Below, in pieces: positions 27 through 5,142 of a DNA stretch of 5,142 nt; position 1 is the first letter of the stretch; each line of letters begins with the position of its first letter. The translations under genes were made by a program, and so were the position numbers. Source of the DNA: a virus. Lineage: Duplodnaviria > Heunggongvirae > Uroviricota > Caudoviricetes. The stretch lies in the IMG/VR virus record IMGVR_UViG_2681813263_000003, one strand, 5' to 3'. Under the pieces are notes generated by a model. It saw nothing but the letters and a program-made list of their open reading frames with translations. It was not told where the DNA came from and searched no databases.

Positions 27-524
27 ATGTCGCCATCATTACGCAAGGCTGTTGCAGTTGCTATTGGTGGCGGGGCTGTTGCTATAGCATCTGTGTTAAT
101 CACTGGCCCAGGTGGTAACGATGGTCTGGAAGGTGTCAGCTACATACCATACAAAGATATCATTGGTGTATGGACTGTATGTCACGGACACACCGGAAAA
201 GACATCATGCCTGGTAAAACGTATACCGAAGCAGAATGCAAAGCTCTCCTGAATAAAGACCTTGCCACTGTCGCCAGACAAATTAACCCGTACATCAAAG
301 TCGATATACCGGAAACAACGCGCGGCGCTCTTTACTCGTTCGTTTACAACGTGGGCGCTGGCAATTTCAGAACATCGACGCTTCTTCGCAAAATAAACCA
401 GGGCGATATCAAAGGCGCATGTGACCAGCTACGTCGCTGGACATATGCTGGCGGTAAGCAATGGAAAGGGCTGATGACCCGTCGTGAGATTGAGCGTGAA
501 GTCTGTTTGTGGGGGCAGCAATGA
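27..524 (+). CDS. R: Phage endolysin (lysozyme, GH24-like) with an N-terminal signal-arrest-release (SAR) domain, phage 21 R-type
   Basis: 165-aa ORF. N-terminus [30 protein letters not shown] is a Gly/Ala-rich, weakly hydrophobic segment typical of SAR domains, followed by the lysozyme catalytic region ([12 protein letters not shown]...[11 protein letters not shown]). From memory it is near-identical to the phage 21 R endolysin. GAGG at 17-20 sits 6 nt upstream of ATG 27. Stop TGA 522-524 overlaps the next start (ATGA). Confidence 0.93.
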
Positions 525-985
525 GCAGAGTCACCGCGATTATCTCCGCTCTGGTTATCTGCATCATCGTCCGCCTGTCATGGGCTGTTAATCATTACCG
601 TGATAACGCCATTACCTACAAAGAGCAGCGCGACAAAAACGCAAGAGAACTGAAGCTGGCGAACGCAACCATTACTGACATGCAGCAGCGCCAGCGTGAT
701 GCTGATGCACTCGATGCTAAATACACGAAGGAGTTAGCTGATGCGAAAGCTGAAAATGAAACTCTGCGCGCTGATGTTGCCGCTGGTCGTCGTCGGTTGC
801 ACATCAAAGCAGTCTGTCAGTCAGTGCGTGAAGCCACCACCGCCTCCGGCGTGGATAATGCAACCAGCCCCCGACTGGCAGACACCGCTGAACGGGATTA
901 TTTCACCCTCAGAGAGCGGCTGATGACGATGCAGATGCAACTGGAAGGGGCACAGGAGTATATCCGCACTCAGTGCATTAAGTAG
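521..985 (+). CDS. Rz: Rz-type inner-membrane spanin subunit (i-spanin)
   Basis: N-terminal TM helix ([20 protein letters not shown]) followed by a long charged, coiled-coil-like periplasmic domain rich in R/E/A/K/D/Q. Sits immediately downstream of the endolysin and contains a nested +1-frame lipoprotein gene. The ORF track starts at GTG 509, but ATG 521 (MSRVTAI...) overlapping the lysozyme stop is the more plausible start. Confidence 0.88.
741..923 (+). CDS. Rz1: Rz1-type outer-membrane lipoprotein spanin subunit (o-spanin), nested inside Rz in another frame
   Basis: 60-aa [27 protein letters not shown]... with a signal peptide and lipobox (VVGC; Cys20 would be the lipidated residue, with T and S at +2/+3 and no Asp). 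Proline-rich stretch PPPPP. AAGGAG at 727-732 lies 8 nt upstream of ATG 741. Entirely inside the Rz ORF in a different frame, the classical Rz/Rz1 arrangement. Confidence 0.87.
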
Positions 986-1378: not shown

Positions 1379-1400
1379 TAATTATTCTCACTTGTAGGGA

Positions 1401-1460
1401 GGGGCGGGGCAAATCCCTGTGACCTGACGTCTTCCGGACTGCCCGCCCCATCGTTTTTTT
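1401..1460 (+). terminator. GC-rich imperfect dyad followed by a T7 tract; candidate rho-independent terminator and/or part of the cos region
   Basis: GGGGCGGGGCA (1401-1411) can pair with TGCCCGCCCC (1440-1449), giving about 8 GC pairs plus 2 more after a one-base bulge, around a loop of about 28 nt that contains the palindrome GACGTC (1426-1431). Followed by TTTTTTT (1454-1460). The loop is long for a canonical intrinsic terminator, hence the low confidence. Confidence 0.35.
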
Positions 1461-1499
1461 ATACCCGCGAAAAATGAAATTTAACCAGGAGTGCCGCAT

Positions 1500-1994
1500 A
1501 TGGCTGGAACGGCGGGGGGGTCCGGGCGTCGCCCCAAGCCAACGGCGCGCAAGGCGCTGGCCGGAAACCCCGGCAAGCGAGCCCTGAACAAAGATGAACC
1601 TGTTTTTACGCCCATCAAAGGTGTTGAGCCACCAGAGTGGTTCGCTGAAGAAGATCTCCCTCTCGCCACGATCATGTGGCAACTGACAACCAAAGAACTC
1701 TGCGGTCAGGGCCTGCTGTGCGTGACTGACCTGGCGGTACTTGAGCGGTGGTGCGTGGCCTATGAGTTCTGGCGACGTGCCGTGAAAAATATTGCCATAC
1801 AGGGCAACACCATCACCGGTGCAATGGGCGGCAGGGTCAAAAATCCGGAGCTGACCGCCAAAAAAGAACAGGAGTCCGAGATGAGCAGCACGGGGGCAAT
1901 GCTCGGACTCGACCCCAGCAGCCGCCAGCGTCTGATTGGCCTGGCGGGGCAGAAGAAAGCCACTAACCCGTTTCTGAAAATTATCGAATCATGA
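1500..1994 (+). CDS. terS: Terminase small subunit, P27 family
   Basis: Translation [36 protein letters not shown]... with downstream ...[22 protein letters not shown]... has the characteristic P27-family N-terminus and core. AGGAG at 1486-1490 favours ATG 1500 over the GTG 1491 used in the ORF track. Stop TGA 1992-1994 overlaps the large-terminase start (ATGA). Confidence 0.88.
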
Positions 1995-3724
1995 GCCGGA
2001 AATCTTACCCCAACGTAAATGCTGCAAATCAGTATGCCCGGGATGTCGTGCGCGGAAAGATTGTTGCCTGCCAGTTTGTGATTCAGGCCTGCCAGCGCCA
2101 TCTTGATGACCTGATGGCGGAAAAAAGTAAGTCGTTTCGTTACCGCTTCGACAAGGACCTGGCTGAACGGGCCGCGAAATTTATTCAGCTGTTGCCGCAC
2201 ACCAAGGGGGAGTGGGCATTCAAACGGATGCCCATCACGCTGGAGCCGTGGCAGCTATTTGTGATCTGCTGTGCGTTTGGCTGGGTCAATAAAGGCACCC
2301 GGTTGCGCCGCTTCCGGGAGGTGTACACCGAAATCCCCCGTAAGAACGGCAAATCAGCAATCTCTGCCGGTGTTGCCCTGTATTGTTTTGCCTGTGATAA
2401 CGAGTTTGGCGCGGAAGTGTATTCCGGTGCCACGACAGAGAAACAGGCGTGGGAAGTCTTTCGCCCGGCGCGACTGATGTGTAAACGCACACCCATGCTG
2501 ACGGAAGCGTTCGGGATTGAGGTTAACGCCTCAAACATGAACCGTCCGGAGGATGGCGCGCGGTTTGAACCGCTGATCGGCAACCCAGGTGATGGTTCAT
2601 CACCCCACTGTGCCGTGGTTGATGAATATCACGAGCATGCCACCGATGCGCTTTATACCACAATGCTTACCGGGATGGGGGCGCGACGTCAGCCACTGAT
2701 GTGGGCCATCACCACCGCCGGGTACAACATTGAGGGGCCGTGCTACGACAAGCGGCGGGAAGTCATCGAGATGCTCAACGGCTCGGTGCCTAACGATGAA
2801 CTGTTCGGGATCATCTATACCGTTGATGAAGGTGACGACTGGACCGGCCCGCAGGTGCTGGAAAAAGCCAATCCAAATATTGGCGTGTCGGTTTATCGCG
2901 AATTTTTGTTAAGTCAGCAGCAGCGTGCGAAAAATAACGCCCGTCTGGCAAACGTCTTTAAAACAAAACACCTCAATATCTGGGTGTCGGCGCGTTCGGC
3001 GTATTTCAACCTGGTGAGCTGGCAGAGCTGCGAGGATAAATCACTGACCCTTGAGCAGTTCGAGGGGCAGCCGTGCATTCTGGCCTTTGACCTGGCGCGT
3101 AAGCTGGATATGAACAGCATGGCGCGACTTTATACCCGCGAGATTGACGGTAAAACGCATTACTACAGTGTGGCCCCGCGTTTCTGGGTACCGTATGACA
3201 CGGTGTACAGCGTCGAGAAAAATGAAGATCGACGGACAGCCGAACGCTTTCAGAAATGGGTGGAAATGGGCGTTCTGACCGTTACCGATGGTGCGGAGGT
3301 GGATTATCGCTACATCCTCGAGGAGGCCAAAGCGGCGAACAAAATCAGCCCGGTCAGTGAGTCACCCATCGACCCCTTCGGGGCGACCGGGTTGTCACAT
3401 GACCTTGCTGATGAAGACCTGAATCCCGTCACTATCGTCCAGAACTTCACCAATATGTCCGATCCGATGAAAGAGCTGGAAGCAGCGATTGAATCGGGAC
3501 GTTTTCATCATGACGGCAATCCCATCATGACCTGGTGTATCGGCAACGTGGTCGGCAAAAACATGCCGGGTAACGATGATGTGGTGAAACCCGTCAAAGA
3601 GCAGGCGGAAAACAAAATCGATGGTGCAGTTGCGCTGATTATGGCGGTTGGCAGAGCCATGCTGTACGAGAAAGAAGACACGCTGTCTGACCACATTGAG
3701 TCCTACGGGATCCGCTCGCTTTAA
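1991..3724 (+). CDS. terL: Terminase large subunit (ATPase plus nuclease; Terminase_1-like)
   Basis: 577-aa ORF. Walker A-like motif EIPRKNGKS and Walker B-like motif [10 protein letters not shown] in the N-terminal ATPase domain; C-terminal RNaseH-like nuclease signatures ([11 protein letters not shown] ... [12 protein letters not shown]). Size and position downstream of terS are typical. Confidence 0.96.
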
Positions 3725-3735
3725 CTGAGGTAATT

Positions 3736-3918
3736 ATGATCATGCTGATTCTCGCGCCTCTGGTGGGCGTGCTGGGTGCGCTTTTGCTGGCGTATGGTGC
3801 CTGGCTGATTTATCCCCCGGCGGGTTTTGTTGTTGCCGGGGCGCTGTGCCTGTTCTGGTCGTGGCTGGTGGCGCGATATCTCGACCGTACACGGCAGTCT
3901 GTCGGCGGAGGTAAATAG
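3736..3918 (+). CDS. Small hypothetical membrane protein (60 aa, two predicted TM helices)
   Basis: [26 protein letters not shown] - PPAG - [19 protein letters not shown], followed by a short basic tail. GAGG at 3727-3730 lies 5 nt upstream of ATG 3736. Its stop TAG 3916-3918 overlaps the portal GTG start by one base. I recognise no family from the sequence alone. Confidence 0.55.
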
Positions 3919-5131
3919 TGTTCTTTTCGGGATTATTTCAACGAAAAAGCGATGTGCCGGTGACCACGCCAGCAGAACTGGCTGATGCTATCGGGCTGTC
4001 ATACGACACCTATACCGGAAAGCGGATCAGTAGCCAGCGGGCCATGCGCCTGACGGCGGTCTATTCTTGCGTCAGGGTGCTGGCAGAGTCTGTTGGTATG
4101 CTGCCCTGCAGTCTCTACAAAATCAGCGGTACCCTGAAAACACGGGCGGTGGATGAACGACTGCATAAGTTGGTTTCGGCAAAACCTAATGGCTACATGA
4201 CACCGCAGGAATTCTGGGAGCTGGTTATTGTCTGCCTGTGTCTACGGGGGAATTTTTACGCCTACAAGGTAAAGGCACNNNNNNNNNNNNNNNNNNNNNN
4301 NNNNNNNNNNNNNNGANNNNNNNNNNNNNNNNNNNNNNNNNNNNNNNNNNNNNNNNNNNNNNNNNNNNNNNNNNNNNNNNNNNNNNNNNNNNNNNNNNNN
4401 NNNNNNNNNNNNNNNNNNNNNNNNNNNNNNNNNNNNNNNNNNNNNNNNNNNNNNNNNNNNNNNNNNNNNNNNNNNNNNNNNNNNNNNNNNNNNNNNNNNN
4501 NNNNNNNNNNNNNNNNNNNNNNNNNNNNNNNNNNNNNNNNNNNNNNNNNNNNNNNNNNNNNNNNNNNNNNNNNNNNNNNNNNNNNNNNNNNNNNNNNNNN
4601 NNNNNNNNNGTTGNNNNNNNNNNNNNNNNNNNNNNNNNNNNNNNNNNNNNNNNNNNNNNNNNNNNNNNNNNNNNNNNNNNNNNNNNNNNNNNNNNNNNNN
4701 NNNNNNNNNNNNNNNNNNNNNNNNNNNNNNNNNNNNNNNNNNNNNNNNNNNNNNNNNNNNNNNNNNNNNNNNNNNNNNNNNNNNNNNNNNNNNNNNNNNN
4801 NNNNNNNNNNNNNNNNNNNNNNNNNNNNNNNNNNNNNNNNNNNNNNNNNNNNNNNNNNNNNNNCGAAGAGCTGGGGCTGGGATTTATCAACTATTCACTG
4901 GTGCCGTATCTGACCCGCATCGAACAGCGGATCAACACCGGACTGGTACGAAAAAGTAAGCAGGGCGTTTATTACGCCAAATTTAACGCCGGGGCGTTAC
5001 TGCGCGGGGATATGAAGTCCCGTTTTGAAGCCTACGCCACCGGGATCAACTGGGGAATTTACTCTTCCAATGACTGCCGCGACCTGGAAGATATGAATCC
5101 GCGTCCCGGTGGTGTAATGCCGATCAGTTAA
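3918..5131 (+). CDS. Portal protein, HK97 family; interior masked by Ns with an apparent frame change across the gap
   Basis: GTG 3918 is preceded by GGAGG (3906-3910, 7 nt spacing). N-terminal 120 aa (…RAMRLTAVYSCVRVLAESVGMLPCSLYK…QEFWELVIV…) resemble HK97-type portal proteins. After the N block the portal-like sequence (…FINYSLVPYLTRIEQRINTGLV…ATGINWGIYSSND…) continues to TAA 5129-5131 but in a different frame (pre-gap frame 0, post-gap frame 2). Total span of about 404 codons fits a portal protein. The end coordinate and integrity are uncertain because of the gap. Confidence 0.8.
4279..4863. other. N-masked or unresolved block (585 positions) containing isolated called bases GA (4315-4316) and GTTG (4610-4613)
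   Basis: Directly visible run of n characters; it lies inside the portal gene. Confidence 0.99.
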
Positions 5132-5142
5132 GGATCAGTTGA

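Follow-up and report, generated by a model that had tools for sequence, protein, structure and literature searches.

An N block in the portal gene of an IS4-truncated P27/SfIV-like prophage remnant

Gene content of the contig and composition of the N block

The window, that is, the whole stretch of DNA analyzed (5142 nt), corresponds to the entire contig CXDG01000221.1 of the draft assembly GCA_001252135.1. The list of open reading frames, the annotations of relatives and Pfam identified it as the late-gene start of a P27/SfIV-type prophage, with the following features.

27-524: lysozyme
509/521-985: Rz
741-923: Rz1, embedded in Rz
1028-1378: HNH endonuclease
1491/1500-1994: small terminase (TerS)
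1991-3724, + strand: large terminase (TerL), with PF03354 and PF20441
3736-3918, + strand: ymfR-like small membrane protein of 60 aa, directly 5' of the portal gene
3918-4278, + strand: 5' part of the portal gene, HK97/P27-type, codons 1-120 plus one base, from a GTG start at 3918 (ORF list, nucleotide identity, PF04860)
4279-4863, no strand: N runs, very probably an unresolved assembly gap; 585 positions stated, 56 more than the 529 nt of every resolved copy
4315-4316, no strand: island GA within the gap (direct count)
4610-4613, no strand: island GTTG within the gap (direct count)
4864-5114, + strand: 3' part of the portal gene, from the third base of codon 297 to codon 399, SfIV-like allele (nucleotide identity, PF04860)
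5115-5142, + strand: first 28 nt of the IS4 terminal inverted repeat, reaching the contig end (comparison with IS4)

The gene order TerL, ymfR-like protein, portal is the same in the window, in phiP27 and in SfIV. In both phages (NC_003356, P27p38, and NC_022749, gp03), as in the window, a PF04860 portal gene directly follows the genes for TerL and a 60-aa membrane protein. The phage portals are intact, 413 aa long, with genes for prohead protease and capsid next in order, whereas the portal gene of the window stops in IS4. The layout of HNH endonuclease, cos and small terminase appears to be the one usual for the P27 type. A G+C-rich inverted repeat (GGGGCGGGGC ... GCCCGCCCC) with a T run after it lies between the HNH and TerS genes, at window positions 1396-1470, and occupies the position of the annotated cos site of phiP27 (phiP27 locus 1774-1783).

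The block at 4279-4863 was described in a preliminary description of this DNA as 585 N. A direct count confirmed the 585 positions, of which 579 are N, in three runs of 36, 293 and 250; the remainder are the islands GA and GTTG. There are no ambiguity codes elsewhere in the window. The portal-like ORF that starts at GTG 3918 (coordinate mod 3 = 0) is open through 4278, and 3' of the block the sole portal-like open frame runs from 4865 (mod 3 = 2), with a translation beginning EELGLGFINYSLVPYLTRIEQ. The change from frame 0 to frame 2 reported in the preliminary description was therefore found as stated. For the record as it stands the discontinuity is genuine, and chance plays no part in it, the Ns being literal in the stored public sequence.

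Length of the stretch in resolved relatives and the portal reading frame

The block was compared with 14 near-identical, N-free copies of the same locus, hereafter called siblings: seven finished chromosomes, including that of S. sonnei Ss046 (CP000038.1), three drafts and four IMG/VR contigs. The four IMG/VR contigs were retrieved with an exact 29-mer across the 3' junction of the window, which gave no match in genome_contigs and none in metagenome_contigs. The ten others were retrieved by look-up of the TerL protein, which is identical in the window and in the IMG/VR siblings. The four IMG/VR siblings were 99.3-99.65% identical to the window 5' of the block and 100% identical 3' of it, and over the 279 nt that follow the block the identity between the window and the siblings was 100%.

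The distance between the two flanks was 529 nt in all 14 siblings, and the sequence between them was identical in every one. The same anchors were also 529 nt apart in the intact portal genes, each of 413 aa, of four more remote relatives (phiP27, E. coli A36, SfIV and MSI001). The left flank of the window showed 94% nucleotide identity to the phiP27 and E. coli A36 portal genes and 81% to that of SfIV, and the right flank 99.6% to the portal gene of Shigella phage SfIV and 81% to that of phiP27. Compared with 529 nt, the 585 positions of the window are 56 in excess, which is 2 mod 3 and exactly the frame jump, indicating that the frameshift is apparent only.

When the 529 nt of the siblings were placed between the flanks of the window, the resulting 1158 nt gave 385 codons and a single terminal stop, with no internal stop. 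In agreement with this, the left portal fragment alone matched positions 2-73 of the PF04860 profile (E 4.6e-19) and the right fragment positions 250-321 (E 8.6e-20), while the restored protein matched positions 2-321 of 321 (E 2.6e-107) and was collinear with the profile across the restored block. The step in the profile from 73 to 250 corresponds to about 177 missing residues, compared with 195 implied by 585 nt.

The preliminary description had offered two accounts of the frame change, namely that the N run is not true to length or that a frameshift or insertion lies under it, and had proposed to align the flanks to intact portal genes. That alignment gave 529 nt against the 585 of the window. 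The first account was borne out, since 529 nt was found in 18 of 18 relatives and brings both flanks into one frame, and the second was without support in any of the 18. A continuous portal ORF of about 400-425 aa had been named as the result that would mark a pure artefact. The restored frame is indeed continuous across the block; its length falls short of that range (385 codons), as IS4 cuts the 3' end at 5115.

We hold with high confidence that the block is a gap artefact with an estimated N count, that the true stretch is the 529 nt of the siblings and that the truncation by IS4 is the lesion of the gene. According to this explanation, the N block would be a scaffolding or assembly gap in a short-read draft of an S. 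sonnei-type genome, its N count having been estimated and not measured. The sequence under the Ns would almost certainly be the 529-nt stretch of the siblings, from which the bases of this isolate are inferred, and it would yield a continuous portal frame. IS4 at window 5115 truncates the portal gene, and the downstream part of the prophage (protease, capsid, tail) is lost. IS4 is a multicopy element at which short-read assemblers halt, and the contig ends 28 nt into IS4 for this reason; several sibling contigs likewise end inside IS4.

Origin of the Ns and of the islands

As described by Page et al. (2016, PMC5320598), the Sanger pipeline of Velvet, SSPACE and GapFiller has produced thousands of ENA drafts, among them 299 assemblies of S. 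sonnei, on average in 405 contigs, and the gap sizes in such scaffolded short-read drafts are estimates. The accession table of that paper contains a sibling assembly, CWXX01; CXDG and the neighbouring accession prefixes had no match among its listed rows, and a literature search for the accession of the contig gave no match either. From the accession series and the contig numbering we infer that CXDG came from a Velvet/SSPACE/GapFiller-type pipeline. The window resembles the scaffold gaps of that paper in having an N run in an otherwise well-assembled small contig of an ENA draft, with a length at odds with resolved genomes. Islands of 2 and 4 nt such as those of the window are not described in the paper. 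The case serves as a caution: across the N runs of scaffolded short-read drafts neither length nor reading frame is kept, and a frameshift across such a run is not to be taken as biology.

The islands were compared with the siblings in different registers. At the offset of the GA island the siblings read GC, and their own GA occurs at shifts 7, 11, 22 and so on; since GA recurs at several shifts, the register of this island is uninformative. At the GTTG island the siblings read GGAG at shift 0 and CGTA at shift 56, and GTTG is found in them only at shift 60 (sibling block positions 272-275) or farther. Models with a single insertion or with a 56-nt tandem duplication were also considered, and neither sets both islands in register, except when GTTG lies inside the insert itself. 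Judging from these positions, we conclude that the N counts are probably not position-faithful, and a misfit of the islands is what would be expected if the counts are estimates.

In Velvet scaffolds, graph nodes of very small length can appear as tiny islands surrounded by Ns, and the 2- and 4-nt islands of the window are probably by-products of the assembly software. The view of the preliminary description, that the islands come from poor or ambiguous sequence rather than from a clean gap, is compatible with the evidence. An origin of the gap from a repeat of this stretch in a second prophage of the same genome was considered and found unsupported, as a 38-mer from the block occurred once per sibling genome in IMG/VR.

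The N run could also be faithful in length, for instance through position-wise masking of low-quality bases, if this isolate carries a private change of about 56 nt (insertion, duplication or replacement) or another indel in its portal gene, which would then be frameshifted here too. The excess in length equals the frame jump exactly, the window has private variants elsewhere, including an HNH protein variant unique among the indexed assemblies, and the islands can be accommodated by an insert between sibling block positions 276 and 331, with GTTG inside it and GA as a synonymous C-to-A change. However, the 529-nt block is identical in all 14 siblings and the next 279 nt are 100% identical to the window, a simple 56-nt tandem duplication misplaces GTTG, the islands do not fit at shift 0 or at shift 56, and the scaffold gap sizes given in short-read drafts are estimates (PMC5320598). 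We consider a private change very unlikely; if present, it would have no functional meaning, as the gene is already dead through IS4.

Less likely again is that the Ns were applied to normal sequence at a later stage, as a mask by a pipeline or a database screen that hides something at this site. A few stretches of one collection are masked as N runs, and three abutting N intervals with leftovers of 2 and 4 nt resemble adjacent masked intervals. On the other hand, the stored NCBI record CXDG01000221.1 is identical to the window base for base, including the three N runs and both islands, and its genes were called on the N-containing sequence. The gene table of this record has no gene across the block and lists a 76-aa portal fragment from GTG 4901; a look-up of this post-gap product matched CXDG01000221.1 only. 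Since no gene in the table spans the block, the Ns predate gene calling, indicating that they are part of the deposit and not a later mask. Moreover, none of the 14 sibling copies is masked in any collection, a length-preserving mask would give 529 positions and not 585, and the stretch, once resolved, is ordinary portal coding sequence in which nothing calls for a mask.

A mobile element (intron, intein, homing endonuclease gene or MITE) or a programmed frameshift site under the Ns can practically be dismissed: intron-, intein- and endonuclease-type insertions are known in structural and packaging genes of phages and an HNH gene lies upstream at 1028-1378, but an excess of 56 positions is too short for an intron, intein or endonuclease gene, none of the 18 relatives has extra sequence at the site, the PF04860 alignment is collinear over the restored block, and the HNH gene is the usual P27-type one adjoining the cos site and the small terminase gene.

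The IS4 junction and the Shigella sonnei siblings

The last 28 nt of the window showed no match to any portal gene. Comparison with an independent 1426-bp copy of IS4 from E. coli ER1709, which has the matching inverted repeat 1426 bp away, placed the first base of IS4 at window position 5115. Past window position 5114 the siblings run on into sequence that is 100% identical to the IS4 copies of over 2500 E. coli genomes. Identity to IS4 (insG, 1426 bp) covers the terminal 28 nt of the window and 160 nt or more of the siblings; the window contains these first 28 nt of the element only and ends 5' of the transposase gene. The transposase in the siblings contains PF13006 (Nterm_IS4) and PF01609 (DDE_Tnp_1) and is 442 aa long in two finished genomes (L108 and L109). 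The junction is the same in 11 of the 14 siblings; two drafts (L112 and L113) end short of it and in one finished genome (L110) it is offset by one.

IS4 interrupts the portal gene at codon 399 of 413, and the ORF ends within IS4 (codon 385/399), with the stop codon at 5129-5131 supplied by IS4. The portal gene is thus a pseudogene through IS4, about 250 bases past the N block. The preliminary description had suggested, as one alternative, a pseudogene or something inserted in the portal gene; an element is indeed inserted there, namely IS4, which that description did not notice, but at 5115 and not under the Ns. An intact 413-aa portal gene followed by prohead protease and major capsid genes was not found at this locus. 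In the finished siblings IS4 is followed by raiA-pheL-pheA or by a further rve-family IS, and protease, capsid and tail genes were never present after IS4 in the finished S. sonnei siblings. On the far side of IS4 the finished siblings also lack the 3' end of the portal gene, and this points to a deletion associated with the IS more than to a simple insertion.

The same copy of IS4 is intact in L108 and L109, with raiA-pheL-pheA next to it, and is cut by the rve-family IS in L105-L107 and L111; in these finished chromosomes (L105-L111) it falls at locus positions ~7100-9500. The presence of this second element within IS4 shows ongoing IS-driven decay of the locus.

The prophage remnant of Ss046 (CP000038.1, 2926425-2936158) is 99.65% identical to the window over 4278 nt and 100% identical over its last 279 nt. 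Holin, lysozyme, Rz/Rz1, HNH, TerS, TerL, ymfR-like and portal genes, together with the same IS4 junction, are common to both. The TerL protein of the window has 4305 indexed blocks in the collection, most of them on contigs of 2-10 kb, indicating that the remnant is widespread and routinely assembled as a small contig. What is observed at the N block is nothing new: it is an artefact of assembly, in a defective prophage that is known and widespread. The locus, an IS4-truncated defective P27/SfIV-like prophage of S. sonnei, recurs in thousands of public assemblies as well as in finished genomes, and poses no open question.

No other member of the sibling set is as divergent as the window, which differs from Ss046 by 14 substitutions and one indel in the 4278 nt 5' of the block, and 14 substitutions over this length are unusually many for a clonal species. 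The substitutions lie at window positions 58-704, 1251, 1518-1520 and 3011, and cluster in the lysozyme, Rz, HNH and TerS genes. A window-specific 37-mer of Rz was present in 94 other, unrelated prophage contigs and represents a common allele, while the HNH protein variant of the window had one record in the whole index, CXDG01000221.1. Where the siblings read GGGGCGT, the window has seven consecutive G (1514-1520). These differences could result from recombination with another lambdoid prophage or from a chimeric or low-quality consensus.

A further difference was found around portal codon 21 (window positions ~3978-3981), where the window reads GAACTGGCTG and the siblings read GAACTG-CTG, one base being missing in all 14. 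This one-base deletion frameshifts the 5' end of the portal gene in the siblings, where gene calling gives a 343-aa portal product that begins at an internal start; in the window, as in phiP27, the frame is intact. Either the isolate branched off before the deletion occurred or this is a difference of consensus. A window-specific 44-mer at this codon had a sole match, in a different phage (L103) with 93.7% identity.

Restoring the block of the siblings gives a portal gene of mosaic make-up. Its first ~880 nt are phiP27-like (94-97% identity; 94-100% in 63-nt windows), with only 62-80% identity to SfIV between gene positions ~130 and 690, and from gene position ~883 onwards the gene is 100% SfIV-like and 75-87% phiP27-like. 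The crossover lies where phiP27 and SfIV resemble each other, beneath the N block or at its right border.
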